Origin: an uncultured Gemmatimonadales bacterium
GTDB lineage: Bacteria; Gemmatimonadota; Gemmatimonadetes; Gemmatimonadales; GWC2-71-9
DNA: 64,000 nucleotides
Assembly: GCA_963730185.1 (NCBI GenBank)
Contig: CAVSQW010000004.1
Span: forward strand, 32,001-96,000
Direction: 5' to 3'
Shown piece after piece: positions 23,239-41,456 of the stretch. How positions within the stretch are numbered: the first letter of the stretch is position 1; each line of letters begins with the position of its first letter. Position numbers and translations under genes: made by a program. Below the pieces are notes generated by a model. The model was not told where the DNA came from and searched no databases. It saw only the letters and a list, made by a program, of their open reading frames with translations.

Positions 23239-24711
23239 TTACGGGGTGGTGGCGTCGCTCGTCCCGGTCCACCGCCCCCCGATGGCCTTGTAGAGCTGGA
23301 CCGTCGCGGCGAGGTACTGCCGGCGGGCGGAGGTGAGCGCGAGCTCCGCGACGAAGAGGCTCCGTTGAGCGTCCAGCACCTCGAGGTAACTCGCGATCCC
23401 TCCCTCGTAGCGGCGTTGGGCCAGCCCGAGGGCGTCGCGGAGCGCGATGGCCTGGGTGGAAAGGGCGGCCACCTGATCGCGGTTGGTGCGGACACCAACC
23501 AGCGCGTCGGCGGTCTCGCCCATCGCGGTGAGCACGGTCTTCTCGTAGCGGGCTCGGGCCTGTTCCGCCCGGGCCCGGGCCGCATCGACGTTGGCCTTGC
23601 CGCGCCCGCCGTCGAAGAGCGGGACCGAGATGCCCAACTGGACGCCGTAGATCTCCGAGTTCTTGGTGAAGAGGTCCTTGGAGTTCGGGGTCTGGCTGCC
23701 GTACTGGCCGGTCAGCACGATCCGAGGGAGCCGGGTGCCCACCGCGAGGCCGATCCGATTGGTGGCGGCAGCCAGCTCCCGGTCGGCCCGCCGGACGTCG
23801 GGTCGCCGGAGCAGCACGTCGGCGGTCACCGAGTCGGGTACGACGACGGCCGCGACGGCGGCGTCGAGGCTGGAGCCGGTCGGAATCGGTCCCGGCGCCC
23901 GCCCGACCAGGATCGAGAGCTGGTGCTCCTTCCGGGACAGATCGCGGGTGAACTCCGCCACCCGAGCGGCCGGCGCGGCCAGGTCGGCCTCGAACTGGCG
24001 GACATCGAGCTCGGAGATGAGGCCCTGGGCGTAGCGTCGCCGGGCCAGCTCGAGCGTGGTTCGACGGGTGGTCAGCGTCCGCCGGGAAACGGCCAGGTTC
24101 TCGCGGAGCTCCAGCAGCTCGAGGTAGGCGGTCGAGACGTCCGCCACCAGGGTCAGGGCCACGGCGCGCTGGTCCTCCACCCGGGCGTCCCGGTCCGCCC
24201 GGGCGGCGCCCAGCCCGCGCCGGAGCCGGCCCCAGAAGTCGAGCTCCCACTGGAGGTCGCTCGTAACCCGGATGGCGTCGTACTTGAGGGCCCCGAACGA
24301 GCCGAACACGGCCTGCTGGGTCGAGGCCGAGCCGTTCAGGTCGATCTCGGGGAGGAGCGGGCTCCGGGAGGTGGTGACCAGGGCCCGGTACTCCCGGACC
24401 CGCGCGATGGCCTCCTGGAGGTCGCGGTTGTCGTGGAGCGCGGTCTGGACCAGGTCGACGAGGACGGTGTCGTGGATCACGTCGAGCCAGGTGGCGGCAT
24501 CGACCGCCTGGGCATCGAAGACCGGGAGCGCGCCGGCGGGCTCCGCGGCGGCCGCCCGGGTGGCCAGCGAGTCGAAGAGCGATGCCTCGGGCGCCCTCGG
24601 TGGGGCCACCGCGATGACCGTCGGCGCCACGGTCGGCGGCGAGTAGCCCGGCCCCACCGCGCAGCCGGCGGCGAGGCCGAGGGCCACCAGCGGGGAGAGT
24701 CGTCGGGTCAT
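23239..24711 (-). CDS. RND efflux outer-membrane lipoprotein (NodT/OprM family)
   Basis: Lipobox AAGC-AVGP; WELDFWGR, RRPDVR.A, YLEVLDAQR and LYKAIGG motifs. Confidence 0.93.
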   Translation of the reverse strand: MTRRLSPLVALGLAAGCAVGPGYSPPTVAPTVIAVAPPRAPEASLFDSLATRAAAAEPAGALPVFDAQAVDAATWLDVIHDTVLVDLVQTALHDNRDLQEAIARVREYRALVTTSRSPLLPEIDLNGSASTQQAVFGSFGALKYDAIRVTSDLQWELDFWGRLRRGLGAARADRDARVEDQRAVALTLVADVSTAYLELLELRENLAVSRRTLTTRRTTLELARRRYAQGLISELDVRQFEADLAAPAARVAEFTRDLSRKEHQLSILVGRAPGPIPTGSSLDAAVAAVVVPDSVTADVLLRRPDVRRADRELAAATNRIGLAVGTRLPRIVLTGQYGSQTPNSKDLFTKNSEIYGVQLGISVPLFDGGRGKANVDAARARAEQARARYEKTVLTAMGETADALVGVRTNRDQVAALSTQAIALRDALGLAQRRYEGGIASYLEVLDAQRSLFVAELALTSARRQYLAATVQLYKAIGGRWTGTSDATTP

Positions 24712-27700
24712 GAGGTCACCTCCGCCTGGCGGCGCCCTTCCGACACCCGGCGGATGGTCGCGAAGAAGAGGGGGATGAAGAAGATCCCGACCAACGTCGC
24801 GAACAGCATCCCGAAGAACACCGCCGTGCCGAGCGAGTGGCGGGAAAGGGCCCCGGCCCCGCCGGCCACCACGAGCGGCAGCACCCCCAGGATGAAGGCG
24901 AACGAGGTCATCAGGATCGGCCGGAACCGCTCCCGGGCGGCCTCCATCGCCGCCTCGCGGATCGAGGCGCCCCGGGAGCGGAGCACGTTGGCGAACTCCA
25001 CGATCAGGATCGCGTTCTTGGCCGCGAGGCCGATCACCGTGATCATCCCGACCTGGAAGTACACGTCGTTCGGCATGCCCCGGGTCCAGATCGCGAGGAA
25101 GGCGCCCAGGGCCCCGAACGGCACCCCGAGCAACACGGCGAAGGGTATGCTCCAGCTCTCGTACTGGGCCGCGAGCACCAGGAACACCAGGACGATGCCC
25201 AAGCCGAAGATCAGACCGCCCTGCCCGCTGGAGGTCTTCTCGGCGAAGGACTGACCGCTGTAGCCGTAGCCGACTCCCCGAGCGGCGAAGTCGTCCTTGA
25301 CCAGCCGCTCCACCGCGCTCAGCATCTCGCCCGAGCTGTGGCCCGGCGCCACCGAGGCGGTGATCAGGGCGGCCGGGAAGCCGTTGAAGCGGCGGACCAG
25401 GCTCGGGCCGGTCCGGAACTCGGCCCGGGCCAGGGCGGAGATCGGGATCATTTCGCCCGACGTGCTCCGGACGAAGATCCGGTTCAGGTCGTCGGGCGCA
25501 TGCCGGAACTCCGGCTGGGCCTCCGCCTGCACCCGGTAGGTGCGGCCGTAGAGGTTGAAATCGTTGATGTAGAGCGACGAGAGCATCGTCTGCAGGGTCT
25601 CGTAGAACGAGCCCAGCTCGACATGGCGGGTCTTGATCGCGTCACGATCGATGTCGAGGTAGAGGAGCGGGGCATCGACCCGGAAGGTGGTCGCGGCGCC
25701 GCGAATCGCGGGCTCCCGGTTGAGCGCCTGAATGAAGTCGTTGACCGTGCCCTCGAAGGTCCGGAGATCCTGGCCCAACCGGGCCTGGAGGTTCACCTCC
25801 AGCCCGGAGGTGAAGCCCAAACCGGTGATCTCGGGGCTGTTGAAGGCGAAGGTGATCGCGTCAGGCAGGCCGAAGAACCGGCCGTTGATCCGCTGGAGGA
25901 TCGCGTCCACGCTCTCGTCCTTGCCGCGCTCGTCCCAGGGCTTGAGCGCCACGAACATGGTGACGCTGTTGGGCTGGTTGGAGAACGACAGCAGGTCGAG
26001 CCCGACCAGGGCGGTGACCCGTTGGACCGCCGACTCGTGGAGCAGGATCTGCTCGACCTGGCTGGTGAACTCGCGGGTCCGCTGGAGCGACGCCCCGGCC
26101 GGGAGCTGGGCCGCCACGATGAAAGTGCCCTTGTCCTCGGTCGGGAGGAACGCCGACGGCACCCGGCGCTCGAGGACGACGATCAGGGCCAGAATCACCC
26201 CGAACACGGCCAGCCAGGGCCGGGGCCGACCCAGCACCAGGCCCACCCGGTGCACGTAGCCCCGGGTCATCCGGGCGAACGTGGTGTTGAACCAGGTGAA
26301 GAACCGGCCGTGCCGGGCCTTCTCGGGCGGCTCGGTGAGGAGGAGGGCGCAGAGCGCGGGCGTCAGGGTCAGGGCCACGATGCCCGACAGCACCACCGCG
26401 ATCACGATGGTGATGGCGAACTGCTTGAACATCGTCCCGGTGATGCCGCCCAGGAAGCCGACCGGGATGAAGACCGCGCAGAGCACCAGCACGATCGCCA
26501 CCAGGGCGCCCGCCACCTGTCCCATGGCCTTGTCGGCCGCCTGCCGGGCGGGGATGCCCTCCTCGGCCATGATCCGCTCGACGTTTTCGATCACCACGAT
26601 CGCGTCGTCGACCACGATCCCGATGGCCAGCACCAGGCCGAAGAGGGTCAGGACGTTGATGGAGAAGCCGAAGGCCAGCAGACCCAGGAAGGTCCCGATC
26701 ACGGACACCGGTACCGCCAGGATCGGGATCAGGGTGGCGCGCCAGCTCTGGAGGAAGAGGAACACCACCAGGGTCACCAGCAGCATCGCCTCGCCCAGGG
26801 TTTTCACGACCTCCTCGATCGAGGCAGTGATGAACGGGCTGGTGTCGAAGGAGACGGCCCACTTCACCCCGGCCGGGAAGGCGCGCTCGAGCTCGTTCAT
26901 CCGATCGACCAGCGCCTGCTTGACCGACAGGGCGTTCGCCCCCGGCTGGAGGAAGAGGATGAAGAGGGCGGTGGGCTTGCCGTTGAGCCGCCCCTCGAGG
27001 TCGCTGCTCCGCGGGCCCAGCTCCACCTTGGCCACGTCCCGGACCCGGACCAGCGAGCCGTCGGACCGGGCCCGGACGATCACCTCCCCGAACTCCTCCG
27101 GCGTCCGGAGCCGGCCCCGGGCGGTCACCGGGATGGTGAGCTCCGTTCCGGGCGGCGCCGGCTCCCGGCCCAGGCGGCCGGCCGGGGCGGTGGCGTTCTG
27201 TTCCCGCACCGCGGTGGCGACGTCGCTCACCGTCACCCCGAGCTGCGCCATCCGATCGGGATCGAGGCGGATCTGCATGGCGAACTCGGTCCCGCCGAAG
27301 ATCTGCGCGTCGCCGACCCCGGGGAGCCGCTTGATCTCGTTCTCGATGTAGAGCTTGGCGTAATTCGTCAGGAACGAGGCGCCGTAGCGGGGATCGTCCG
27401 AGGTCAGCGTCCCGACCAGCAGGATGTCGCTGTTGGCCTTGGTGACGATGATGCCGTTCCGCCGGACCTCCTCGGGGAGCTGCGGCTCGGCCAGCTTGAT
27501 GGCGTTCTGCACCTCGACCGCCGCGAGGTCCTGATTGCGGGACACGTCGAAGAACGCCTGGAGGGTCAGGGTCCCGTCGCTGCCGTTGGACGAGTTGAAG
27601 TAGAGCAGGCCGGACAGGCCGGACAGCTGCTGCTCGATCGGCGCCGCCACCGCCTGGGCGACGTCTTCCGCGGTGGCGCCGGGATACACCGCGTTGACCC

Positions 27701-27878
27701 GGATCGAGGGCGGGGTGATCGAGGGATACCGGTTGACCGGCAGGTACCGGATCGAGAACACGCCGAGCAGGGTGATGACGATCGAGATCACCGCCGCGAC
27801 GACCGGGCGGCGGATGAAGAAGTAGCGAGGCTCCCCCGGCGGAACCGGGCCCGAGGAGAAGGGCGACTCGCCGCTCAC
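24708..27878 (-). CDS. HAE1 family RND efflux permease (AcrB/MexB-like)
   Basis: FFIRRPV, GIVVDDAIVVIEN, AKNAILIVEF and RFRPILMTS motifs; 1056 aa. Confidence 0.96.
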   Translation of the reverse strand: MSGESPFSSGPVPPGEPRYFFIRRPVVAAVISIVITLLGVFSIRYLPVNRYPSITPPSIRVNAVYPGATAEDVAQAVAAPIEQQLSGLSGLLYFNSSNGSDGTLTLQAFFDVSRNQDLAAVEVQNAIKLAEPQLPEEVRRNGIIVTKANSDILLVGTLTSDDPRYGASFLTNYAKLYIENEIKRLPGVGDAQIFGGTEFAMQIRLDPDRMAQLGVTVSDVATAVREQNATAPAGRLGREPAPPGTELTIPVTARGRLRTPEEFGEVIVRARSDGSLVRVRDVAKVELGPRSSDLEGRLNGKPTALFILFLQPGANALSVKQALVDRMNELERAFPAGVKWAVSFDTSPFITASIEEVVKTLGEAMLLVTLVVFLFLQSWRATLIPILAVPVSVIGTFLGLLAFGFSINVLTLFGLVLAIGIVVDDAIVVIENVERIMAEEGIPARQAADKAMGQVAGALVAIVLVLCAVFIPVGFLGGITGTMFKQFAITIVIAVVLSGIVALTLTPALCALLLTEPPEKARHGRFFTWFNTTFARMTRGYVHRVGLVLGRPRPWLAVFGVILALIVVLERRVPSAFLPTEDKGTFIVAAQLPAGASLQRTREFTSQVEQILLHESAVQRVTALVGLDLLSFSNQPNSVTMFVALKPWDERGKDESVDAILQRINGRFFGLPDAITFAFNSPEITGLGFTSGLEVNLQARLGQDLRTFEGTVNDFIQALNREPAIRGAATTFRVDAPLLYLDIDRDAIKTRHVELGSFYETLQTMLSSLYINDFNLYGRTYRVQAEAQPEFRHAPDDLNRIFVRSTSGEMIPISALARAEFRTGPSLVRRFNGFPAALITASVAPGHSSGEMLSAVERLVKDDFAARGVGYGYSGQSFAEKTSSGQGGLIFGLGIVLVFLVLAAQYESWSIPFAVLLGVPFGALGAFLAIWTRGMPNDVYFQVGMITVIGLAAKNAILIVEFANVLRSRGASIREAAMEAARERFRPILMTSFAFILGVLPLVVAGGAGALSRHSLGTAVFFGMLFATLVGIFFIPLFFATIRRVSEGRRQAEVTS

Positions 27879-29071
27879 GACGCCCCTCCGGCCGCCGTGC
27901 TGTCCGCGCCGGGCTCGGCCTTGGCCGGCGTCGGCTTCGCCACGCCGCCGGGACGGACCTTCTGGAGGCCGTCGACGACCACCCGGTCACCGGGAGCGAG
28001 CCCCTCCTCGATCAGCCACTCGTCGCCGACCCAGGCGGTCGCCTTGACGTCGCGCGCCACCACCGTATCGCCGGCGCCGAGCAGATAGACCGACTGTCGC
28101 CCCAGCTGCTGTTGGACGGCGCGCTGCGGCACCAGGATGGCGCTGTCCCGGACCAATCCCTCGAGCCGGACTCGAACGAACTGGCCCGGAAGCAGCAGAC
28201 GCTTCGGGTTCGGGACCCGCGCCCGGAACTCCTGGGTGCCGCTGGCCGGGTCGATCACCGGCTCCACGTAGTCGAGCTTGCCCTCGGTCGGGGTCAGCGT
28301 CCCATCCGGCAAGATGATCCGGATCCGCGCGGACCCGCCGGGCCGGAGGGCCGCCACCGCCTGGGGATCGCGACGCCAGTGAAGGGTCTGCTGATTCGAG
28401 GGCCGGAAGGTGACCCGGACCGGGTCCAGCGCGTCGATCGTGGTCAGCAGGTCCGCCGGTCCGGTAACCCGGGCCCCCCGCACCAGGTTGGCCTTGCCGA
28501 CCCGCCCCGCGATCTCGGCCCGGACGGTCGCGTCCTTCAGGTCCTTGGCGGCGCGGTCCACCGAGGCCTGCGCATCCTCGACCGACGCCCGCGCTTGGGC
28601 CTCGGCGGTCTCGGCATCGTCCACGTCGCGCTGGGCCACGGCGTGGTCGGCCAGCAGGGGGCGGAGCCGCTCCATCGTGCGGGTGGCGTTCCGGAGGCGG
28701 GCCTCCGCTTCGGTCTGACGAGCCTTGGCACCGCGAAGCGTGGCGTCGTAGCTGGTGGGGTCGATCCGGAAGAGCACGTCGCCGACCGCGACCTCGGCCC
28801 CTTCGCGAATCGGCTGGGCCACGATCACCCCCGCCACCGGGGAGCGGACCTCCACCCGGCGCATGGCCTCGACCTGGCCGGCGAACTCGGCGACCTCGTT
28901 CACCCGCCGGGGCTGGACCGCCACCACCCCCACCGTCGGCGGCGGTAGCGGGGGCGGTTGGGGAGCGTTGCAGGCCAAGGCGACCATCACCGTGCCCGCC
29001 GCCGCGATTCGGCGGAACGACGTCAGCCAACCGCGCGAATCCGCCCTTGCCCCCGATGTCGCCACAGCCAC
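27875..29071 (-). CDS. RND efflux periplasmic adaptor (AcrA-like)
   Basis: Lipobox ALAC; EVRSPVAG, LFRIDP, LLPGQFVRV and GDRVVVDG motifs. Confidence 0.93.
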   Translation of the reverse strand: MAVATSGARADSRGWLTSFRRIAAAGTVMVALACNAPQPPPLPPPTVGVVAVQPRRVNEVAEFAGQVEAMRRVEVRSPVAGVIVAQPIREGAEVAVGDVLFRIDPTSYDATLRGAKARQTEAEARLRNATRTMERLRPLLADHAVAQRDVDDAETAEAQARASVEDAQASVDRAAKDLKDATVRAEIAGRVGKANLVRGARVTGPADLLTTIDALDPVRVTFRPSNQQTLHWRRDPQAVAALRPGGSARIRIILPDGTLTPTEGKLDYVEPVIDPASGTQEFRARVPNPKRLLLPGQFVRVRLEGLVRDSAILVPQRAVQQQLGRQSVYLLGAGDTVVARDVKATAWVGDEWLIEEGLAPGDRVVVDGLQKVRPGGVAKPTPAKAEPGADSTAAGGAS

Positions 29072-29188: not shown

Positions 29189-29599
29189 TCAGAAGCGGCC
29201 GCCGATCACGGGCAGCTCGCGCCGCCGGATCACGATCACGATCAGCGCCGACACCAGCACCGTCACCGCCATGCCGAAGAGGAGCCCGCCGTCGCCCTGG
29301 ACGTCGATTCCGAGCCGGGTCAGGTGGGCCCCGATGGCACCCACCATCAGGCCCAGGGCCAGGACCGCGCCCACGGCCGGGGTCTTGGGGTAGACCAGCA
29401 GCAGGGCCGTGATCAGCTCGAGGATTCCGGTGCCGATCCGTCCCCAGGGCTCGACGCCCAAGGTGGAGAAGATGTACTTGGCTTCGGGGGCGCCGGTGAA
29501 CTTGAAGAAGAGAGTCTGGGCCAGAATCACCGCGGCGAGGAGCTGGAAGATCCAGCTCGCCACCAGGGCGGGTTTGCTCGGCGCGACGGGTGCGGACAC
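29189..29599 (-). CDS. DoxX-like membrane protein
   Basis: QTLFFKF, EPWGRIGTG..EL and GAI..HLT.LGI motifs; strong AAGGAGGT RBS before GTG. Confidence 0.85.
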   Translation of the reverse strand: MSAPVAPSKPALVASWIFQLLAAVILAQTLFFKFTGAPEAKYIFSTLGVEPWGRIGTGILELITALLLVYPKTPAVGAVLALGLMVGAIGAHLTRLGIDVQGDGGLLFGMAVTVLVSALIVIVIRRRELPVIGGRF

Positions 29600-29617: not shown

Positions 29618-32260
29618 TCAGGCCGCCTCCACGTGGGCCCGGCCGGCCCGGCGGTGGCGACGCATCAGATCGAACAGCCCACGGAGCGGGGTGGGGGTGG
29701 CGCCGGCGACCCGGTTACGGGTCCCGATCTCGAAGAGGAGTGCCCACTGCCGGAACAGCACTCGATAGGCCCGGAACAGCGAGTTGGCCGGATCGTAGAT
29801 GCTGGTCGCTTCGGAGGTGGCGCCGTTGAGCTCCAGGATCTTGAAGCTGTCACCCCGGCTCAACGCCTCGTACGACGGCGCTCTGATGTCGTAGCGCCCG
29901 AACCAGAACCCATCGTAGGTCCGGCTCACCTCGTCGATCGCGGCCTCGAGGGCCGGCGTTCTGACCCGCTCACCCTCGAAGAACGCCGCCCCCCGGCAAT
30001 GGGTTCCCAACTCGGCCAGGGGGACGATTTCGCCCGCCGCTGGGACGCTGGCCAACCGGGACGCATGATGGGTGAGAAAGAACCGGGCCATGCCGACCGC
30101 GCGGTCGTCGGTCAGGATCAGTTCCTCCAGCGACCGGACCCCGTCACCGGTGACGGCGGGGAGCCGCTTGTCGGTGAGGGCGAAGAGCCGGCCCCGCTCC
30201 TCACCGGGGATCCGGTAGTAGAAAATGCCCATCTCGACGCCGGGCACGTACTCCTGGATCAGCACCGGCTCGACCGCCCGGGCGAGGTAGGCCTCCGCGG
30301 CGGCCAGATCCCGAACGATGGCCACTCCATCGCCGCGCTCGCCGACGTCGGGCTTGAGCACCACGGGAAAGTCGAGCCGGTGCTCGGTCAGGAAGCGTCG
30401 GACCGCCGCCACCCGTTCGGCGAGCGATCCGCCGGGCGGCAGGAGACGCCAGCGGGCCACCCGGTCGCCGGCGCCGTCGAGCCCGCGAAGGATCTCCGCC
30501 TTGGACTCGCCCACGAAGCCGCCGCCCGGGATCGCCGGGTTGGCCGCGGTCCAGACCGTCAGGCTCCGGTGCTTGAGCGCCAGCCAGAGGACGTAGAGCA
30601 CCACCGGTGGATAGAAGGCCCAGCGGGGCCAGTATTCCCAGCGGGTGAGCCGCCGCCAGCGGGAGACCAGGAGCCGCCGGCCCCGCCAGGAGCAGAGCGG
30701 GACCACCAGCTTGACCACGATCAGGAGCAGGAGCGCCACCCCGAGCAGGGTGGGCATGGCGAATCGCTGGTAGGCCGTGAACCCGGCGAGCACCCGACTT
30801 CCGAAGAGGGCGCTGGCGCCGACCAGGGCGGGCGTCCAGAGCGCCGCCGCGAGGACGAAGACGCCGAGGAAGGCGAGCGCCCGGGTGTGGAGGATGCCGG
30901 CCGTCAGATAGGTCGGGAGGCGGGTGCCGGGCACGAACCGGGTCAGGAGGGCGATCCAGGCCCCATAGCGGCGGAACCAGGCCGAGCTCCGGTCGATGTC
31001 GGCGTCACTGACCAGCCAGCGGAGCGGCGCCCGGCGGACGGCCGGCCGGCCGATCCAGCGCCCGGCCGCGAAGAGCAGGAGGTCGCCACCCACGATCCCC
31101 ACCGCGCACGCGGTGGTGCCGGCCACGAACCCGAGGGAACCCCGGCCGATCAGGAGCCCGGCGGCGATGCAGGCCAGGTCTTCGCTGACCAGCGTCGCCA
31201 CGGCCAGGAGCACCAGCAGGATGCTCAGCGCGAGCCCGGCGACCGGCGGAATGACCCGGGGGTCGAACGGCCGGGCCGCCGCGGCCAGCCGGGCCGGGTC
31301 GGCGGTGGCCCGGGTTATGGCGGTGCCCTGGTCGACCGAGTCGAGGAACCGGTCGACGACCGGGGCGAGCTCGGACGCGCGGGCGAAGGCCATGAAGTGG
31401 TTGGCTGCCGGATCGCGAAACATCACCAGCTCGCTCTGGGGGAGGAGCCGGGCGTGCTCAGCGGCGATCGCGGGCTGGACCAGCGGGTCCCGGTCGCCCT
31501 GGATGATCAGCGCCGGTCCGCCGAACCGGCTCAGGATCCCGCGGAGCGGCCGTTGGTCGGAGTCGTAGAAATTCCGGGCATACTCCACGTTCAGCATCCC
31601 GAAGAGCCCGCCGTCGGGGGCGCCGACGTGGGGAACGGCTTCGCGGAGGAGCCAGAGCCCGGCCAGCTGGAGCCCGTGAATGGTGTGGTTCAGGTAGTAG
31701 TCGCCGAGGAGCTCGTATTCCTGCGCGCCGATGGCCGAGAGGAGGGTGAGCGACTCGATCCGGTCGGGCGCCAGTCCCGCCATGCTGATGGCCACCCCAC
31801 CGCCCATGCTGAAGCCCAGCACGTTGGCCTTCCGGATCCCGAGCGAGTCCATCAGCTCGAGCACGTACCGGGCGTGGGCCAGGAACGAGTAGTCCGGGAC
31901 GTCGTGGGTGGAGCCACCGAACCCGGGCAGGTCGGGCGCGATGGCCCGGCGCCGGGCGCCGAGCAGGTGGGTGAGCTGGGAGACCTCGCGGTTGGAGCCC
32001 GGGCTCCCGTGGAGCAGGATGATCGGAGTCCGGTCGTCGGCGCTGTCGGCGCTGTCGGGCCGAACGTCGAGGAAGGCGAGCCGGACCGTGCCCGCCACCA
32101 CCTTCGCCCCCCGCACCGCGCCGACCGGCACGACCCGTTCGGTCGGGCGGGGTGTCGGGACGAACGGGTGGGCCGAGCGCCACAGGTGTGACAGCGCGAC
32201 CAGGACGGCCCAGACTCCCACGACCCATCGGAGCCAATGGCGCCGGGGCCGGCCGGTCAT
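29618..32260 (-). CDS. Triple fusion: alpha/beta hydrolase + DedA/VTT membrane domain + ATP-grasp (D-Ala-D-Ala-ligase-like) domain
   Basis: Hydrolase: HGSPG, GFSMGG, GDRDPLV, ANHF. DedA: ATLVSEDLACI, RFVPGTRLPTY. ATP-grasp: LKPDVGERG, IQEY, FGRYDIR, ILELNG. Confidence 0.85.
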   Translation of the reverse strand: MTGRPRRHWLRWVVGVWAVLVALSHLWRSAHPFVPTPRPTERVVPVGAVRGAKVVAGTVRLAFLDVRPDSADSADDRTPIILLHGSPGSNREVSQLTHLLGARRRAIAPDLPGFGGSTHDVPDYSFLAHARYVLELMDSLGIRKANVLGFSMGGGVAISMAGLAPDRIESLTLLSAIGAQEYELLGDYYLNHTIHGLQLAGLWLLREAVPHVGAPDGGLFGMLNVEYARNFYDSDQRPLRGILSRFGGPALIIQGDRDPLVQPAIAAEHARLLPQSELVMFRDPAANHFMAFARASELAPVVDRFLDSVDQGTAITRATADPARLAAAARPFDPRVIPPVAGLALSILLVLLAVATLVSEDLACIAAGLLIGRGSLGFVAGTTACAVGIVGGDLLLFAAGRWIGRPAVRRAPLRWLVSDADIDRSSAWFRRYGAWIALLTRFVPGTRLPTYLTAGILHTRALAFLGVFVLAAALWTPALVGASALFGSRVLAGFTAYQRFAMPTLLGVALLLLIVVKLVVPLCSWRGRRLLVSRWRRLTRWEYWPRWAFYPPVVLYVLWLALKHRSLTVWTAANPAIPGGGFVGESKAEILRGLDGAGDRVARWRLLPPGGSLAERVAAVRRFLTEHRLDFPVVLKPDVGERGDGVAIVRDLAAAEAYLARAVEPVLIQEYVPGVEMGIFYYRIPGEERGRLFALTDKRLPAVTGDGVRSLEELILTDDRAVGMARFFLTHHASRLASVPAAGEIVPLAELGTHCRGAAFFEGERVRTPALEAAIDEVSRTYDGFWFGRYDIRAPSYEALSRGDSFKILELNGATSEATSIYDPANSLFRAYRVLFRQWALLFEIGTRNRVAGATPTPLRGLFDLMRRHRRAGRAHVEAA

Positions 32261-32994
32261 CAAGCGGGCTCGCCCCGGCGGGGAAGGGAGAGCGTGGTCA
32301 CCGGGCCGCCCTCGCAGGGGGCGCCGTCCACGTGGGCGAGCTGGACCTGGTGGGTCTCGACCGTGACGACCGTGTATCCCCGGGTTGCCGCCTCGGGCCG
32401 GTGCATGCACACCGAGAAGGGCCCCCGCTCGGGGTCGTGGCTCCGGTGGAACCGATCGAGCCGATCGCGGGTGACCGGGCCGTCGCCCAGCATCGCCCGC
32501 CAGGCCGCGCTCCGCGCCCGCTCGGCCTCGGCCTGATCGCGGCCCGAGCTGGTCCGGATCATCCCGGGCGTCTCCACCAGCGCGCGGAGCAGCAGGGCGC
32601 CGGTCCAGTCGGTGAGCAGGACTTCGCGGCCGGGGTCGACGGCGGCCAGGGTGAACGGCTGATACCGACCCAGCGTGGCTGGCGCCAGCCGGTCGATGGC
32701 GCGGCCGGCCGTTCGGGCATCGAGCAGCGAGCGAACCAGGAGGCCGCGGCTCACCCGGTTGGGTTCTGGATCGGGCGGCGACTCGGCGTACCGGTTGAGG
32801 AGCGCGATGGTGACCCCGTACTCGTTGACCCCGATCCAGGTACCGCCGAAGTCGCCGTCGGTGGGGGCGAGATAGGCTACACCCTCGCGCTCGCCCCGCG
32901 TCGGCGGCAGGGCAGGGGCCCGGGTCAGACGCTCGTCGCGGTTGAAGTAGAGGGCGTAGCCGTCGGGCTCACCGAGCCAGCTCAGAGTACACAC
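32260..32994 (-). CDS. NRDE/TANGO2 family protein (Ntn-hydrolase fold)
   Basis: GTG-Cys-Thr start; NRDE, GGTWIGVNEYG and SRGLLV motifs. Confidence 0.9.
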   Translation of the reverse strand: MCTLSWLGEPDGYALYFNRDERLTRAPALPPTRGEREGVAYLAPTDGDFGGTWIGVNEYGVTIALLNRYAESPPDPEPNRVSRGLLVRSLLDARTAGRAIDRLAPATLGRYQPFTLAAVDPGREVLLTDWTGALLLRALVETPGMIRTSSGRDQAEAERARSAAWRAMLGDGPVTRDRLDRFHRSHDPERGPFSVCMHRPEAATRGYTVVTVETHQVQLAHVDGAPCEGGPVTTLSLPRRGEPA

Positions 32995-33509
32995 TACCGC
33001 TCGGCCCGAGCGTGCGCCTGGGTCGAAGGGGCCACGCCGAAGTCGGGGCCGAGGGTCACCGGCTCGTCGGCCAGGAGGAGCTTGATCAGGGCGAAGTGAT
33101 GCACGGTATGACTCACCAGAAACTGGATCTCGCGGGCCACCGTGGACCGCGACCACTCGGGCTCGGGCGCGTCGACGGCGGTCCGGAGCTGGACGGCCAC
33201 CGGCCGATCGGGCTCGATGCCTTGGAGCGAGGCCAGGCCGTCGAGGGCCTCGCGGGTGGCTTGGGCGGCGCGAGTCGGGTCCTGCTCGAGCCGGGCGTCG
33301 CGCCGCCGGGCATCGTAGTCTATCGCCCCGGTGGCCACCCCGGCCAGGAAACACTGATAGTGCTCCACCACGTGCCGGTACTGCGCCCCGACCGGCGCCC
33401 AGCCGCCCCGGTGGGCCGCGTACCGCTCCGGAGACAGCGCGACCAGCAGGGCGAGGGCCTGTTCCAGGAGCAGGCGATTGGCGTCGAGGCCGGTTTCCAG
33501 CGGGTTCAT
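32994..33509 (-). CDS. DinB/YfiT-like protein
   Basis: GAQYRHVVEHY, IDYDARRRD and REIQFLVSHTVHHFALI (conserved His) motifs. Confidence 0.82.
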   Translation of the reverse strand: MNPLETGLDANRLLLEQALALLVALSPERYAAHRGGWAPVGAQYRHVVEHYQCFLAGVATGAIDYDARRRDARLEQDPTRAAQATREALDGLASLQGIEPDRPVAVQLRTAVDAPEPEWSRSTVAREIQFLVSHTVHHFALIKLLLADEPVTLGPDFGVAPSTQAHARAER

Positions 33510-34363
33510 GCGCTCTCCACGGTTCCGGCCCGGGCCGACTCGAGGCGGCGGGCCATCAGCGATCGGGCCCGCGCCGCCAACGCGCTCCGGTCGTCGGCGA
33601 CGAGGCCCTCGGGCTCGAAGGTGACGGTAGCATGGAACCCGGGCAACTGACAGAGCCCGAGCACGTGGGGCACGAACGCCATGTCGCCCCACCAGCACAC
33701 CGCGTCCCGCGCCGGCGGCGAGCCGGCGGGGGTCTGATAGCGGATCGTGGCCACGCGGACCGGCGATCCGGAGCGGACGGCCCACTCGAAGAGCGCCGGC
33801 CGCAATTGAGAAACGTCGTCACCGTGGGAGCTGGTTCCCTCGGGGAACACCACCACGCCGAGCCCCCGGGCGACGCCCTGGTCGATCGCGTCGAGGACCC
33901 GGATGGCGTCGCGCGGGCTCGACCGGTCCAGGAATATGGTGCCCACCAGCCGGGTCAGATACCCGACGATCGGCCACTGGTTGAGCTCCCGCTTGGCCAC
34001 GAAGACCACGTCGACCTGGCTCATCAGAAGCACGATGTCCACGTAGCTCAAGTGGTTCGCCACCAGGAAGAAGGGCGGTTCCGGCACCGGCCCTTCGATC
34101 GTGACCCGCATGCCGACGGAGCGGCTCATGCCCCGGGCCCAGAGCCGTGCCATCCGGGCCAGCCACCGCTGCCGGGCCCGGGCCCAGGGCGTCAGGATGC
34201 CGATCCCGACCAGCGCGACGGTGAGGCACCCGGTGGTCCACCAGCTCATCAGCAGGAGCCGCCAGAACGGCCGGACCGAGCCGGCGCGGATGAGTCCCGC
34301 CAGCTCGGCCGGGAGGCTCTGGCCGAGCACCTCACGGCGGATCTCCGAAGGGGCGTCGCTCAC
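33506..34363 (-). CDS. Lysophospholipid acyltransferase (PlsC/OlsA-like)
   Basis: NHLSYVD, FVAK, GTIFLDR and FPEGT motifs; also CWWGDM.F..H. Confidence 0.92.
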   Translation of the reverse strand: MSDAPSEIRREVLGQSLPAELAGLIRAGSVRPFWRLLLMSWWTTGCLTVALVGIGILTPWARARQRWLARMARLWARGMSRSVGMRVTIEGPVPEPPFFLVANHLSYVDIVLLMSQVDVVFVAKRELNQWPIVGYLTRLVGTIFLDRSSPRDAIRVLDAIDQGVARGLGVVVFPEGTSSHGDDVSQLRPALFEWAVRSGSPVRVATIRYQTPAGSPPARDAVCWWGDMAFVPHVLGLCQLPGFHATVTFEPEGLVADDRSALAARARSLMARRLESARAGTVESA

Positions 34364-35184
34364 CGGAAGAAGGTGCGGAAGGTCGCCGGGTCGATGGTCC
34401 TCACGTCGAGCATCACCAGCCAGTCGATGGTCTTGAACAGGGGATCGATTGCCGGCGGGCCGGCCACCTTCGCTCCGAGCGCCAGATAGGTCTGGAACAG
34501 CGCCGGGACGTGCGGCTCGGGCAGCGGGGCGTCCGGATCGGCCACCGCGCACCGTCCGGCCGGGCGGGGCTGCACCCCGAACCGCTCGTCCACCGCGCCG
34601 ATCCGCTCCAGGTGGCGGTGGACCGAGACGCCGACCGCCGGATCCATGCTGTTGACCGAACAGCAGCCGAAAAGATAGTGCTTCCGGTTCCAGGTCAGGT
34701 AGGAGGCCAATCCCCGCCAGAGGAGGTGCAGCACCCGGCCGTTCCGATGGGCCTTGGCCACGCAGGCCCGCCCGATTTCGACGGCACCCCCTTCGACGTC
34801 GGCGGGGAGGCCGCTCAGATCGAACTCGCCGTCCGAGTAGTAGCCGCCGCCTTCGCGGGCCATCTCGGCGGTCTGCATCCGGTAGGTCCCCACCACCTCG
34901 GTGCCGGAGCGGTCGAGGATCATCAGGTGGTGGAAGCGCTGATCGAGGTCGTCCTCGTCACGGCCGTTCTGATGCGAGCTGTCGAGGCCTTCGCCCAGCT
35001 CCAGGTTGAAGACCTCGTAGCGGAGCCGGAGGAGCCGGTCGAGGTCGGCCGCGGTGCGGGCGAACCGGACCAAGTAGTTGCCGGCCTCGAGGTGGAGATC
35101 CGGCAGGGCGTCGGGCGCGATCGGGTACTCGGCCGTGGCGGGCTCGAGACTCCGGATCGAACGGCGACGGATGGGCTCGATCAT
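34360..35184 (-). CDS. GNAT-fold N-acyltransferase (OlsB-like N-acyl amino acid synthase)
   Basis: RLRYEVFNLEL, DEDDLD, VVGTYR, EFD, EIGRACV..HRNG, LW.GL, FGCCS and GPPA.D..F.T.D motifs. Confidence 0.88.
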   Translation of the reverse strand: MIEPIRRRSIRSLEPATAEYPIAPDALPDLHLEAGNYLVRFARTAADLDRLLRLRYEVFNLELGEGLDSSHQNGRDEDDLDQRFHHLMILDRSGTEVVGTYRMQTAEMAREGGGYYSDGEFDLSGLPADVEGGAVEIGRACVAKAHRNGRVLHLLWRGLASYLTWNRKHYLFGCCSVNSMDPAVGVSVHRHLERIGAVDERFGVQPRPAGRCAVADPDAPLPEPHVPALFQTYLALGAKVAGPPAIDPLFKTIDWLVMLDVRTIDPATFRTFFR

Positions 35185-36962
35185 GCGGCACTCCGGAGCG
35201 AAGAAGGATCGGCTTCGAGGAGCCAGAGGTCGCCGAGGCGGGCGACCCGGCCGGTGACGGCGACCGGCCGTCCCACCCAACGCGCGAGGCCCGCGATCGG
35301 TTGCCCGCGGCGATCGACCAGGAGCAACTCCAGCCGGTGGCCCTGCTCGTCCCGCACCACCAGCATCGGAGGTAGGCCGCCCGCCACGCAACGCGCGGCG
35401 CACTCCCGGTGGGTCTTGCCCTCCCCCGGGTTCATTACCCCCAAGTAGCACTTGCCGTCCACGATCTCCCCTACGAGATCGAAGGTACCGAGGTTCTGGG
35501 GCGCGGCGGCGGGCGCGGCCGGCTCGGGACGGGGCGCCGTGCCGCTCACCTCGAGCAGGGTCAGCCCGTCGCGATAGGCCAGGGTACCCCGGAGCACCGC
35601 GCGGCGGCCGTCGAGCGGCCCGGCGATCGCCTGGGCGCCGTGCTTGCCGGCCGCCGCCAGCAGATAGCGGCTGACCCGTTCGCTGCCGGGCCGCTGAACT
35701 TCGAGGAGCGGGTAGGGGGCGGTTCGAACCGTGCCGATCAGCTCCGTCGGGTGGCCGTACTCGAACGTTGCCGGCGCGAAGCGATCCTGCGCAAGAGCCA
35801 AGACGCCCACGATGGCTCCGACCAGTACCAGAGCGGCCACGACCAGGTGCCGGGTGAATCGGGCCAGCCCGGTGGGGGCGGTGGGCACGTAGCCGACGTA
35901 GAACTCGTCCCGGCCCGCGGGCGCGGACGGGGACGAGGGGGCGGCCACCGGCTCGACCCGGGTTCCGGGGGCGTTGGGGATCCGATGCACCAGCACCCGA
36001 TCGCCGGCCAGGCGGAGGTTGAAGGTGGGAATCCGGTCGTCGAACGGCGGCGGCGCGGTGCCGCTGTCGGGGCGATACTGGTAGCCGTGCCAGGGACAGG
36101 TGATGCAGCCATCGACGATCCGGCCTTCGCCCAGGGGGCCGTTCTGGTGCCGGCAGACGTTGGAGACCGCCGAGAGCCGGCCCTCGTGCCGGAACACCGC
36201 GACCCGCTCGCCGCCCACCACGCCGACGATGGCGCGGCCCTCGGGGATCGAGGCGGCCGAGCCCACGTCCTCCCAATCCTGGTCCGGCGCCCCCTCGCGA
36301 TCGCGGGCCCGCTCCCGGAGGGCCGCGGCCAGGTGCAACCCCCCGATCGCGACCGCGCCCAGGGCGAAGGGCGCGGCGTACCACAGGCTCCGCTCATCCT
36401 GAAGCACGCCCAGCCCCACGTGGCCGAGGAGCAGCAGGTAGGCTGGGTACACGAGGAGGTGGAGCCGCTTCCAGGCCGGCGGGGTGAGGACCGAGAGCCA
36501 GTAGTCGTGGCTGGTGGCGGCCATCAGGACCAGGATCACCAGCGCGCCGAGGCCCAGCAGCTCGAACGGAAAGCCGCTCACGCTGGTCCAGCTCCGATTC
36601 GAGATCAGCACGCTCACGAGAGGGTTCACGTTGCCGAAGGCGTGGAACTGAACCAGCGCGAACCCGGCATGCGCCAATGCCAGGAGCGCCATGGCGATGC
36701 CCAGGTGGCGGCGGTTGTAGAGCAGGGGCAGAAAGCGCCGGTCCAGGCGAGCCAGCGGGCCGATGGCGAGGATCAGGTGGAGCAAGACGATCCCCGCGAG
36801 GCCGAGCCCCCGGATCAGGATCGTCTCGGCGGTGGCGTCGGGGTGGGTGAGCGCCGTGAGGCCCCCGAACCACGCCACCAGGCCGACCGCCGTGACCCCG
36901 AGAACCGCGTCGTAGATCCGCTTCTGACGGTTCCAGTTGACGGCCCGGTAGGCGACGCTCAT
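35181..36962 (-). CDS. Ferric-reductase-like (MsrQ-type) heme-b membrane domain + Rieske [2Fe-2S] + C-terminal Cys/His domain fusion
   Basis: RRHLG, AHA, ATSHD and WKRLHLLVY; Rieske CRHQ...CPWHG; a further TM helix, then C-x12-H-x2-C-x3-C. Confidence 0.85.
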   Translation of the reverse strand: MSVAYRAVNWNRQKRIYDAVLGVTAVGLVAWFGGLTALTHPDATAETILIRGLGLAGIVLLHLILAIGPLARLDRRFLPLLYNRRHLGIAMALLALAHAGFALVQFHAFGNVNPLVSVLISNRSWTSVSGFPFELLGLGALVILVLMAATSHDYWLSVLTPPAWKRLHLLVYPAYLLLLGHVGLGVLQDERSLWYAAPFALGAVAIGGLHLAAALRERARDREGAPDQDWEDVGSAASIPEGRAIVGVVGGERVAVFRHEGRLSAVSNVCRHQNGPLGEGRIVDGCITCPWHGYQYRPDSGTAPPPFDDRIPTFNLRLAGDRVLVHRIPNAPGTRVEPVAAPSSPSAPAGRDEFYVGYVPTAPTGLARFTRHLVVAALVLVGAIVGVLALAQDRFAPATFEYGHPTELIGTVRTAPYPLLEVQRPGSERVSRYLLAAAGKHGAQAIAGPLDGRRAVLRGTLAYRDGLTLLEVSGTAPRPEPAAPAAAPQNLGTFDLVGEIVDGKCYLGVMNPGEGKTHRECAARCVAGGLPPMLVVRDEQGHRLELLLVDRRGQPIAGLARWVGRPVAVTGRVARLGDLWLLEADPSSLRSAA

Positions 36963-37426
36963 CGGGGCCCTCCCCTCGGGCGGAGCGGGGTGACGGCTTC
37001 GACCCGACCTGGCCCGTTGCTCCAGAGTATGGCCGTCAGCCTCCCACTCGGGAGCCGAAGCCGCTCGGAGACGGCGCGAGGCGCGCCGACCGCGCCGACC
37101 AGGATGGCGTCCGCGGGAAGCCCGCCGGTGCTCGATACGCCCGGGGCCAGGTAGAGCAGGGGGTCGGCCGCCCGGATCGGAAACCGCGGTCGGGTGGTCA
37201 CCACCGTCTCCCCGGTGGCTGGGTTGCCGGCGAGCGACACGATGAGCGGGAAGGTCGAGTCGGCCACCAGGTCGTCGGTCGCAGGGTCCGAGGTGCCGGG
37301 AAGGACGGCGACCACGAGCCGCGACGGATCGGGTCGGGCGGCGAGCGCCCCGAGCACGATGGTCGGCCCGACCGTGACCAACGCCACCGACCAGGCCAGG
37401 TGCCGTCGTCGGAGCCTTCGGATCAT
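36959..37426 (-). CDS. Hypothetical membrane-anchored protein
   Basis: MIRRLRRRH, one TM helix and 'ADPLLY' soluble domain; ATGA overlaps at both ends. Confidence 0.7.
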   Translation of the reverse strand: MIRRLRRRHLAWSVALVTVGPTIVLGALAARPDPSRLVVAVLPGTSDPATDDLVADSTFPLIVSLAGNPATGETVVTTRPRFPIRAADPLLYLAPGVSSTGGLPADAILVGAVGAPRAVSERLRLPSGRLTAILWSNGPGRVEAVTPLRPRGGPR

Positions 37427-37695
37427 CCGGGCGGCCTGGCTCGGGCGGCGTCGCGATGGGCGTCGTGCGGCTCGGGCGGGGCTGGGCCTCCGCGGGACAC
37501 CCGCCACACGATCGCCGGCCAGAGCAGCGCGGCGCCGGGCACGATCAGGAGTCGAAAGCCCCAGGTCCCGTGGCCGGCCGCGGGATCGAGCCGACCGGCC
37601 CCACGGAACGCCAGCCACGCCGCGCACCCGGCGCCCACCGCCAGGTAAGCCGCGGTGAGGAGGACGATGGTGGAGGCGGTCTGGATCGCGGTCAT
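37423..37695 (-). CDS. Small 2-TM hypothetical protein
   Basis: AAYLAVG...RLDPAA..GTWGFRLLIVPG.ALLWP; ATGA overlap with the next gene. Confidence 0.72.
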   Translation of the reverse strand: MTAIQTASTIVLLTAAYLAVGAGCAAWLAFRGAGRLDPAAGHGTWGFRLLIVPGAALLWPAIVWRVSRGGPAPPEPHDAHRDAARARPPG

Positions 37696-37890
37696 GTGAG
37701 AGTCCCAATCTCTGGTTCGGCGGGGGCTTTGGCCAGACCGGACATCCAAGGAACGCCGTCGGCGGGTGTTCGGTTCCGAGGCGGGCCGCCGCGGGTGGGC
37801 GCTCCCGCCATCCGGGGGATCGGGCCGCTCGCGGGTCGATCTCGGCGGGCGGCGAGGCCGACTAGTATTCGGGTGGAGGAAGGGCATCAG

Positions 37891-40592
<2,702 letters not shown>

Positions 40593-40596
<4 letters not shown>

Positions 40597-41456
40597 CCTT
40601 ACCCAGCGAGACCGGCATTCCCGTTGCGTCCACCTTCATCGATCGCCCGGCCCCTCGGCTGCTCGCGGGCCAGAACGTCCTGGTGACCGGCGCCAGCTCG
40701 GGCATCGGCAAAGCCGTCGCCTTCGCCATGGCCTCCGCCGGCGCCGACGTCTGCGTCAACTATCCGGTCGAGACCGAGATGGCCAAGGCCGAAGGCGAGG
40801 TCGAGGAGATCAAACAACTGGGTGGCCGGGCCTGGGCCCACCAGTGCGACGTCTCGAAGGAGGACGAGGTGATCGCGATGTTCGACCGGATTCGTCGCGA
40901 GATGGGCACGGTCGACATCGTGGTGGCCAACGCCGGGATCCAGCGCGACGCGCCGTTCCATGAGATGACCCTCGACCAGTGGAACCGCGTGCTCGCGGTG
41001 AACCTGACGGGCCAGTTCCTGTGCATCCGCGAGGCGGTCAAGGAGTTCCGCCGGCGCGGCTTCCGGGACGTGTCACGCGCGCTGGGGAAGGTGATCTGCA
41101 TGAGTTCGGTCCACGAGGTGATTCCCTGGGCCGGGCACGTGAACTACGCCGCGTCGAAGGGTGGGGTGATGCTGATGATGAAGAGCATCGCCCAGGAGGT
41201 CGCGCCCCAGAAGATCCGGGTCCTCGCGGTGGCCCCCGGCGCCATCCGGACCCCGATCAACAAGGACGCCTGGGATACCCCCGAGGCCCTGAACAAGCTG
41301 CTCACCCTGATCCCGGCCAAGCGGATCGGCGAGACCGAGGACATCGCCCGGACCTGCGTCTGGCTGGCCTCGGACGAAGCCGACTACATCACCGGGACGA
41401 CGCTCTTCGTCGACGGCGGGATGACCCTCTACCCGGGCTTCGAAGCCGGGGGATGA
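40593..41456 (+). CDS. Glucose 1-dehydrogenase-like SDR oxidoreductase
   Basis: TGASSGIG, NAG, SSVHEVIPW, YAASK and DGGMTLYPGF motifs. Confidence 0.92.

Follow-up and report, generated by a model that had tools for sequence, protein, structure and literature searches.

The gene at positions 35181–36962 (minus strand) of a 64,000-nucleotide window (positions 32,001 to 96,000 of contig CAVSQW010000004.1, assembly GCA_963730185.1, from an uncultured Gemmatimonadales bacterium) encodes a real, conserved and uncharacterised fusion protein, which we read, with a probability of roughly 0.55, as a stress-induced MsrQ-like electron exporter serving an adjacent predicted aminolipid ligase pathway. The likely task of such a wire is to keep the exported lipid, or the enzymes of its pathway, reduced under oxidative stress. 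The fusion gene, its parts and the two small genes upstream of it (u1 and u2) are the following.

35181..36962, minus strand: fusion of an MsrQ-type ferric reductase domain (FRD), a Rieske domain, a seventh transmembrane helix and two OB-like barrels, 593 residues (open reading frame translation, Pfam, AlphaFold2).
36300..36929, minus strand: six-helix MsrQ-type FRD (residues 12–221) with predicted heme ligands H98 and H181 (alignment, Pfam).
35958..36281, minus strand: ferredoxin-type Rieske [2Fe-2S] domain (residues 228–335), predicted cytoplasmic (Pfam, Foldseek, positive-inside rule).
35787..35909, minus strand: EFYVGY motif and seventh membrane helix (residues 352–392), the point where the stand-alone gene begins in split systems (alignment, AlphaFold2).
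35532..35771, minus strand: first OB-like barrel (residues 398–477) with invariant K440 (AlphaFold2, Foldseek, alignment).
35193..35498, minus strand: second OB-like barrel (residues 489–590) with D502, C505, M510, H518, C521 and C525 (alignment).
36959..37426, minus strand: u1, 155 residues, an N-terminal helix and a predicted outside beta domain (clustering, alignment).
37423..37695, minus strand: u2, a 90-residue membrane protein and core member of the conserved module (no Pfam or NCBIfam match).

Pfam places Ferric_reduct (PF01794) at residues 53–178 (E 4e-13, 49.9 bits against a gathering score of 28) and the Rieske family at residues 230–302 (E 3e-15), while residues 350–593 reach the cut-off of no Pfam family and match no sequence in the PDB. 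Seven hydrophobic peaks are found, six ahead of the Rieske domain and one at residue ~373, and the AlphaFold2 model concurs; the whole chain is modeled with a pLDDT of 87.8 and a pTM of 0.84, and the last 243 residues alone with a pLDDT of 90.3. The elements listed in a preliminary description of this DNA are all present: about six transmembrane helices with histidines at ferric-reductase-like positions (the six peaks, with the flavin mononucleotide (FMN) and heme residues conserved), an intact Rieske motif (C270-x-H272-x16-C289-x2-H292, in 187/187 aligned sequences), DEFYVGY (residues 352–358) followed by a further transmembrane helix, GKHG (439–442) and C505-x12-H518-x2-C521-x3-C525. Since 119 of the 120 best homologues listed align over 98–100% of the 593-residue query, the fusion is real and not a sequencing artefact. 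A frameshift or an assembly artefact is likewise ruled out by the many fused homologues and by the recurrence of the fused form on a quick tree. The closest named homologues of the fusion protein, among the matches listed, come from the Gemmatimonadota.

The outer part of the protein carries the most strictly kept site. C505, H518, C521 and C525 are found in all 389 aligned sequences, M510, K504 and K440 in 388, and D502 in 384. The conservation expected for the Cys/His motif thus holds for these four residues and fails for the histidine of GKHG, H441, which is kept in only 279 of the 389 sequences and is therefore taken as inessential. The last 243 residues also exist as a separate protein of ~250 residues (647 matches; with E values up to 0.001 admitted, 2815 representatives). 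The Foldseek search proposed earlier for the C-terminal ~240 residues returned only weak and generic tandem-OB matches (best E 4.5e-4, TM below 0.3). In the ESM Atlas the last domain has unnamed look-alikes of 242–252 residues and the second barrel has no named cluster, and PDB sequence searches with the C-terminal part, with the stand-alone signal-peptide family described below and with u1 gave nothing significant. Membership in DUF5818 was considered and rejected: only weak matches occur, in 22 of 86 members (E 8e-4 at best), and the four DUF5818-matching stretches score 11–14 bits against 27, none of them spanning the Cys motif. A selenocysteine scan of metagenome contigs, limited to C505, gave no TGA match at that position.

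In E. coli MsrQ the FMN pocket comprises R77, R78, S135, W147 and H151, and the heme ligands are H91 and H164 (PMC12525009; published sources are cited here from the accessible parts of their text). Mapped through the source genome's own MsrQ and the published spacings, and not by direct alignment, these residues correspond to a predicted FMN pocket of R84, R85, S151, W164 and H168 and to the predicted heme ligands H98 and H181, all seven of which are invariant in 121 fused proteins. Among 187 FRD-Rieske sequences H98, S151, H152, H168, H181 and the four Rieske ligands are invariant, and R84, R85, H86, H107 and H210 are present in 185–186 (R84 in 185); H86, H107, H152 and H210 are thus invariant or nearly so, and additional to the MsrQ set. 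Arginine where the first of the canonical heme histidines would stand, with three histidines kept, is the YedZ/STEAP signature (PMC3591440), and the fusion carries it (R84 in 185/187; H98, H168 and H181 in 187/187). The residue pattern makes one heme plus FMN the likely content of the membrane domain. The order Rieske, then heme b, given in the preliminary description has to be adjusted accordingly: because the membrane domain bears the MsrQ signature of FMN plus one heme, a flavin likely lies in between. A two-heme arrangement of the NOX type is not favoured, as R84 occupies the histidine position. H86 is invariant and lies off the canonical spacing, and a second heme is conceivable.

The Rieske part finds dioxygenase ferredoxins of the BphF/CarAc type as its top Foldseek matches (TMt 0.80–0.86). 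The mean numbers of Lys+Arg per loop, counted from the N-terminus, are 3.5, 0.1, 4.1, 0.8, 1.8, 0.3 and 3.8, and because they alternate loop by loop, the Rieske domain is placed inside. In the case of the last domain, the Lys+Arg count is higher before helix 7 than after it (3.6 vs 1.8 in 256 stand-alone proteins), which places this domain outside, as do its signal-peptide relatives; a cytoplasmic location, which would have spoken against the earlier proposal, is thus not predicted. No [ST]RRxF motif indicative of Tat export is present in the same 256 proteins. In the predicted arrangement the Rieske domain is inside and the OB domains are outside, as one rigid body.

The neighbourhood of the four-gene module was followed in 80 loci, kept of at least 583 confirmed stretches, with titles spanning Gemmatimonadota, Acidobacteriota, Planctomycetota, Rhodothermales, Verrucomicrobiota, KSB1 and others. 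The single chain proposed earlier is real, but it is the minority form: 5 loci are fused, 69 are split into two genes and 6 are undecided, with no FRD inside the locus. In the organism's own phylum, 20 of the 33 other loci comprise 10 fused and 10 split. On a quick tree built from 107 rows (all usable locus rows and one third of the fused proteins) the fused/split label needs 9 changes, at least 3 of them forced by well-supported branches, and since the changes recur, repeated fusion and fission fits partners of one complex. A u2 homologue is found upstream in 70/80 loci and in 20/20 own-phylum loci (one partial), with G21, F47 and W59 invariant in 63 rows. The u1 cluster is found in 52/80 loci, and in most own-phylum loci u1 is shortened to the helix alone or undetected. 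Its outer domain gives a weak profile match to two DM13 sequences (probability 57.6, E 1e-4, 74 columns), with Ser at the DM13 Cys column and no PF10517 Pfam match in 36 members.

The fusion gene is the third of nine genes, the stops and starts of which overlap or abut, with DoxX following after a short gap. The order is u2, u1, fusion, OlsB-like, OlsA-like, DinB, TANGO2/NRDE, hydrolase-DedA-ATP-grasp and DoxX, and the genes after the fusion are the following.

34360..35184, minus strand: OlsB-like N-acyltransferase, its start overlapping the fusion stop (PF13444; NCBIfam OlsB E 3e-37, below cut-off).
33506..34363, minus strand: OlsA-like O-acyltransferase (PF01553; NCBIfam OlsA E 8e-35, below cut-off).
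32994..33509, minus strand: DinB-superfamily protein (PF12867).
32260..32994, minus strand: TANGO2/NRDE-family protein with an N-terminal Cys (PF05742; Cys2 in 40/40 alignments).
29618..32260, minus strand: alpha/beta hydrolase-DedA-ATP-grasp fusion, 880 residues (Pfam/NCBIfam, profiles).
29189..29599, minus strand: DoxX-like membrane protein, the last gene of the operon (PF13564).

ATP-grasp enzymes couple carboxylates with amines, and DinB proteins handle thiols. Within 10 kb of the module, OlsB-like genes occur in 45 of the 80 loci, as expected from the proposed proximity to acyltransferase genes, followed by DinB (37), ATP-grasp (37), DedA (36), TANGO2 (31), DoxX (28) and OlsA (21); these neighbours occur in several orders and orientations, and contig ends shorten many of the loci.

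The tie to the lipid operon, proposed at first from position, exceeds adjacency. The same genome samples, each including its centre genome (a known positive), were searched with a module profile and with a profile of the ATP-grasp part of the ligase. Counted as both, module only, ligase only and neither, the genomes divide as 33/1/1/266 in the own phylum (six genomes with only weak stand-alone matches being counted module-free), 11/0/6/134 in the G301 phylum (genome G328 among the 134), 10/1/1/101 in the G456 phylum and 30/2/32/62 in the G302 class. Over the four lineages the ligase is present in 84 of 88 module genomes vs 40 of 603 module-free genomes. The two are often not neighbours: of 33 pairs in the own phylum 15 are unlinked, almost every pair of the G302 class is far apart or on separate contigs, and in ten own-phylum module loci no lipid gene follows the module and the lipid genes stay grouped elsewhere. 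Other redox genes, taken as controls, give 26/33 vs 16/36 (MsrP) and 10/34 vs 6/36 (Rieske-FAD reductase) for module-positive vs module-free genomes; in the same control genomes (33–34 module-positive, 36 module-free) the ligase gives 32 vs 0. At the level of genomes the module depends one-way on the ATP-grasp/DedA ligase. No internal stops were found in the module profile matches or inside the ligase alignments.

A promoter motif of the extracytoplasmic function (ECF) sigma type stands ahead of the operon.

37752..37777, minus strand: SigE/SigH-type ECF promoter motif GGAACC-N16-CGTT, with its end 57 nt ahead of the operon's first gene.

The window holds 2 matches to this motif vs 0.69 expected. 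Upstream of u2 in 20 own-phylum loci (the window included, one locus without full u2 dropped) it is exact in 7 and within one mismatch in 10, with shuffles at 0.7%. The motif equals the SigE/SigH consensus of hypochlorite-induced promoters in M. smegmatis, GGAACY-N16/17-CGTT (PMC5430705), and does not by itself name the inducing stress. In 59 broader loci a related pattern precedes only 5, u2 being often inside an operon. ECF sigma factors are encoded near the module in 12/80 loci and ZAS anti-sigma factors in 9/80. A genome-wide scan gave 14 copies of the motif, few of them at plausible promoter positions, and no regulon could be defined from it. A second exact copy precedes a molybdopterin oxidoreductase gene of the same genome by 67 nt, and by this motif the gene is a candidate member of the same regulon. 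In three Planctomycetota loci (L010, L011, L059) the module has a different ECF-like motif, TGTCACA-N16/17-CGTA, upstream of u2.

G000:C3:69823-70444 (= L212:5758-6378), minus strand: second motif locus, PF00174 gene.

The second barrel also occurs alone, in signal-peptide proteins of 115–150 residues that keep D-x2-C-x10-H-x2-C-x3-C and G-x-P and do not retain the Met510 column. This family is widespread and unnamed, with no Pfam, NCBIfam or PDB match. Two examples, from loci L122–L151 and L160–L189, are given here.

L149:1495-1869, minus strand: stand-alone Cys/His protein.
L123:1483-1884, minus strand: stand-alone Cys/His protein.

The strict Cys/His pattern recovers the family in 55 of 62 loci, and its profile matches in 78/301 own-phylum genomes and 59/151 genomes of the G301 phylum, module copies included (the latter tally includes genome G328, the locus of which is left out of the neighbour counts). 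In the own phylum a TlpA-like thioredoxin domain is encoded within 1.5 kb in 24 of 30 stand-alone loci, usually in the next, overlapping gene, the TlpA-like protein being large, and in one longer locus CcdA, thioredoxin and an ECF sigma factor are encoded as well; only 2 of 100 module loci have a TlpA-like domain. TlpA proteins are reductants. These neighbours support export and a site that needs to stay reduced, with a metal role possible.

In the mechanism that we propose, a shared, non-dedicated cytoplasmic reductase would pass electrons to the Rieske cluster, from which they would move to FMN (R84, R85, S151, W164, H168) and on to heme b (H98, H181). The heme would then reduce the C505/H518/C521/C525 site, which may cycle between disulfide and thiol or hold a soft metal, and this site would in turn reduce the exported product of OlsB/OlsA/ATP-grasp/DedA, or an enzyme of the pathway, at the outer face of the inner membrane. 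The proteins u2 and u1 would be accessory subunits.

Several results weigh against this outward wire. Its chief weakness is thermodynamic. Ferredoxin-type Rieske centres lie near −150 mV. The potentials of MsrQ are −340 mV for FMN and −256 mV for the heme (PMC12525009), and the first electron step would therefore be uphill; the four extra histidines may retune the step from Rieske to flavin, or the flow may be inward. No dedicated donor was found either: the distribution of the Rieske-FAD reductase does not follow that of the module, no NAD_binding_1 (Fre/FNR-type) domain is present anywhere in the 82%-complete genome, and Rieske-fused flavoenzymes, possible local electron donors, adjoin the module in only 6 (a glutamate-synthase-like FMN enzyme) and 3 (PoxB-like) of the 80 loci (L008, L013, L017, L018, L026, L068, L072). 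In the G301 phylum the neighbours of 32 stand-alone loci are of another kind, with di-heme cytochromes c in 10, cytochrome c3/c7 in 3, P1B ATPases in 4, CusA-like pumps in 3 and TlpA in none. Of 124 genomes with the ligase, 40 have no module, which would make the wire an optional accessory, and the genomes are kin and mostly incomplete assemblies, which means that the counts overstate independence. Shared regulation alone could also couple the genes.

That last point leads to an unlikely alternative, in which the same outward wire performs general envelope thiol repair, its only tie to the lipid genes being a common ECF stress regulon. The shared promoter type and the nearby ECF sigma and ZAS anti-sigma genes agree with it, as do the many genomes in which module and ligase are unlinked and the placement of the stand-alone Cys/His family beside TlpA, thioredoxin and, once, CcdA. 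It accounts less well for a one-way dependence on the ligase that is near complete (84/88) even when the genes are unlinked, and MsrP, another envelope repair gene, follows the module far more loosely.

Inward flow is improbable. Here the outer site would oxidise a thiol or other group on the product, and electrons would pass from the heme to the Rieske centre and to a cytoplasmic acceptor, a downhill path if the Rieske potential is near −150 mV, above those measured for the MsrQ heme and FMN. The lack of a dedicated donor and the cytochromes c beside stand-alone relatives in 13/32 loci of the second phylum would suit this direction; against it, the TlpA proteins encoded beside the stand-alone family act as reductants, and the characterised FRD proteins (MsrQ, STEAP, FRE, NOX) export electrons (PMC3591440, PMC12525009). 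Least probable is a metal reductase with a built-in chaperone, its heme reducing Cu(II)/Fe(III) outside and a CusF-like OB domain binding the reduced metal: the FRD family includes ferric and cupric reductases (PMC3591440), CusF binds Cu(I) and is OB-like in fold (PMC7558416), M510 is kept in 388/389 sequences, and P1B ATPases (4) and CusA-like pumps (4) stand beside stand-alone relatives in 62 loci, but a P1B ATPase is found in only 4/100 module loci, the RND matches in these loci reach no more than 31% identity to the CusA-like query, the copper site of CusF is made of His/Met/Met/Trp and contains no Cys (PMC7558416), and the module tracks the ligase, not metal genes.

For the outward wire serving the lipid pathway, a more specific and rather doubtful version makes the operon a membrane redox buffer: OlsB/OlsA would build an aminolipid, the ATP-grasp domain would ligate an amine that bears a thiol to its head group, DedA would flip it outward, DinB and TANGO2 would process or recycle it, and the wire would re-reduce it once oxidised. 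If true, MsrPQ and the low-molecular-weight thiol systems would have a lipid-based counterpart, whose catalytic end is a new OB-fold reductase.

Further observations concern the surroundings. In the 29618–32260 (minus strand) product, about six His besides the catalytic one are kept in 33–37 of 36–37 alignments of the hydrolase domain, and the ATP-grasp part has one invariant His (56/56); judged from conservation, these extra histidines may form a metal site. A gene for a secreted YHS-domain protein is found with the module and DoxX in 19/80 loci (L012, L015, L071 and 16 more). An AcrB-type RND pump with its adaptor (24708–29071, minus strand) lies directly downstream of DoxX, facing a TetR-like gene region and outside the conserved cluster. 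A divergent pair, an MGH1-like glycoside hydrolase and a short-chain dehydrogenase (37891–41456, plus strand), has homologues that recur near the module elsewhere (glycoside hydrolase clusters in 15–19/80 loci, the dehydrogenase in 34/80). The dehydrogenase (40593–41456, plus strand) is NAD(P)-binding, and the earlier statement that no FAD/NADPH domain occurs in the window therefore needs correction; its companion, that no MsrP occurs there, stands (no PF00174 found).

In comparison with E. coli MsrPQ, the fusion shares the six-helix FRD, the Arg at the first heme His position, the spacings of FMN pocket and heme ligands, the predicted outward electron transfer and the stress-type regulation; it differs in its fused Rieske domain instead of the soluble Fre, in the four extra invariant His and in an acceptor that is a membrane-anchored Cys3-His OB protein. 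Its score for the NCBIfam MsrQ equivalog is 26.8 bits against a cut-off of 130. A role as the MsrQ partner of MsrP is ruled out: MsrP is found in 0/100 module loci, co-occurs loosely (7/33 module genomes lack it) and in the source genome lies on contig C2 beside its own MsrQ. The fusion would work like MsrPQ but is no member of that system. Rieske is among the bacterial FRD extensions of the FRD-Rieske 'M4' class of Zhang et al. 2013, for which an FMN-binding domain is listed too, and the accessible text of that paper describes no function, partner or operon (PMC3591440).

NOX, long-form FRE and STEAP proteins likewise join an FRD core and a cytoplasmic redox domain in one chain; the fusion has Arg84 in place of the first His and no FAD/NADPH dehydrogenase domain, nor any other FAD/NAD-binding Pfam domain, which sets it apart from the NOX and long-form FRE types. 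Like DsbD/CcdA with TlpA/ResA, and Sco (CxxxC plus His), it would bring cytoplasmic electrons to an exported Cys site, and its stand-alone relatives are encoded beside TlpA-like genes, but it is a cofactor wire with an OB fold and with three Cys and a His on two helices. With CusF it shares a predicted OB barrel outside the membrane and a potential metal or cofactor site, and CcmE is a periplasmic OB-fold chaperone with a comparable outside barrel. The tandem barrels here differ from both in their ligand set (Cys3/His/Met) and have no PDB sequence match, and no close CusA-like gene was found in 100 module loci. The adjacent N- and O-acyltransferase homologues and the ATP-dependent ligase resemble OlsB/OlsA synthesis; the scores are below the OlsB/OlsA cut-offs, and the accessible descriptions of that pathway include no redox module. 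In the case of cerilipin, taurine is transferred to ornithine lipid in an ATP-dependent manner, with no gene assigned in the accessible text (PMC12971839). No description of the FRD-Rieske/Cys-His module was found in the accessible open-access literature, where a figure of PMC3591440 may show the architecture.

For MsrQ-type wires MsrP has been the sole well-characterised client, and the module points to a second one: an exported Cys3-His OB family, as yet unnamed, that soil and sediment phyla commonly carry and that the module ties to an aminolipid ligase pathway not described before. Should a lipid head group be the substrate, this would be a cytoplasm-driven redox repair or modification of membrane lipids, of which no case was found in the literature searched. 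With donor domain, wire and acceptor on one chain, one purified protein could settle the cofactors, the direction of flow and the chemistry of the acceptor.

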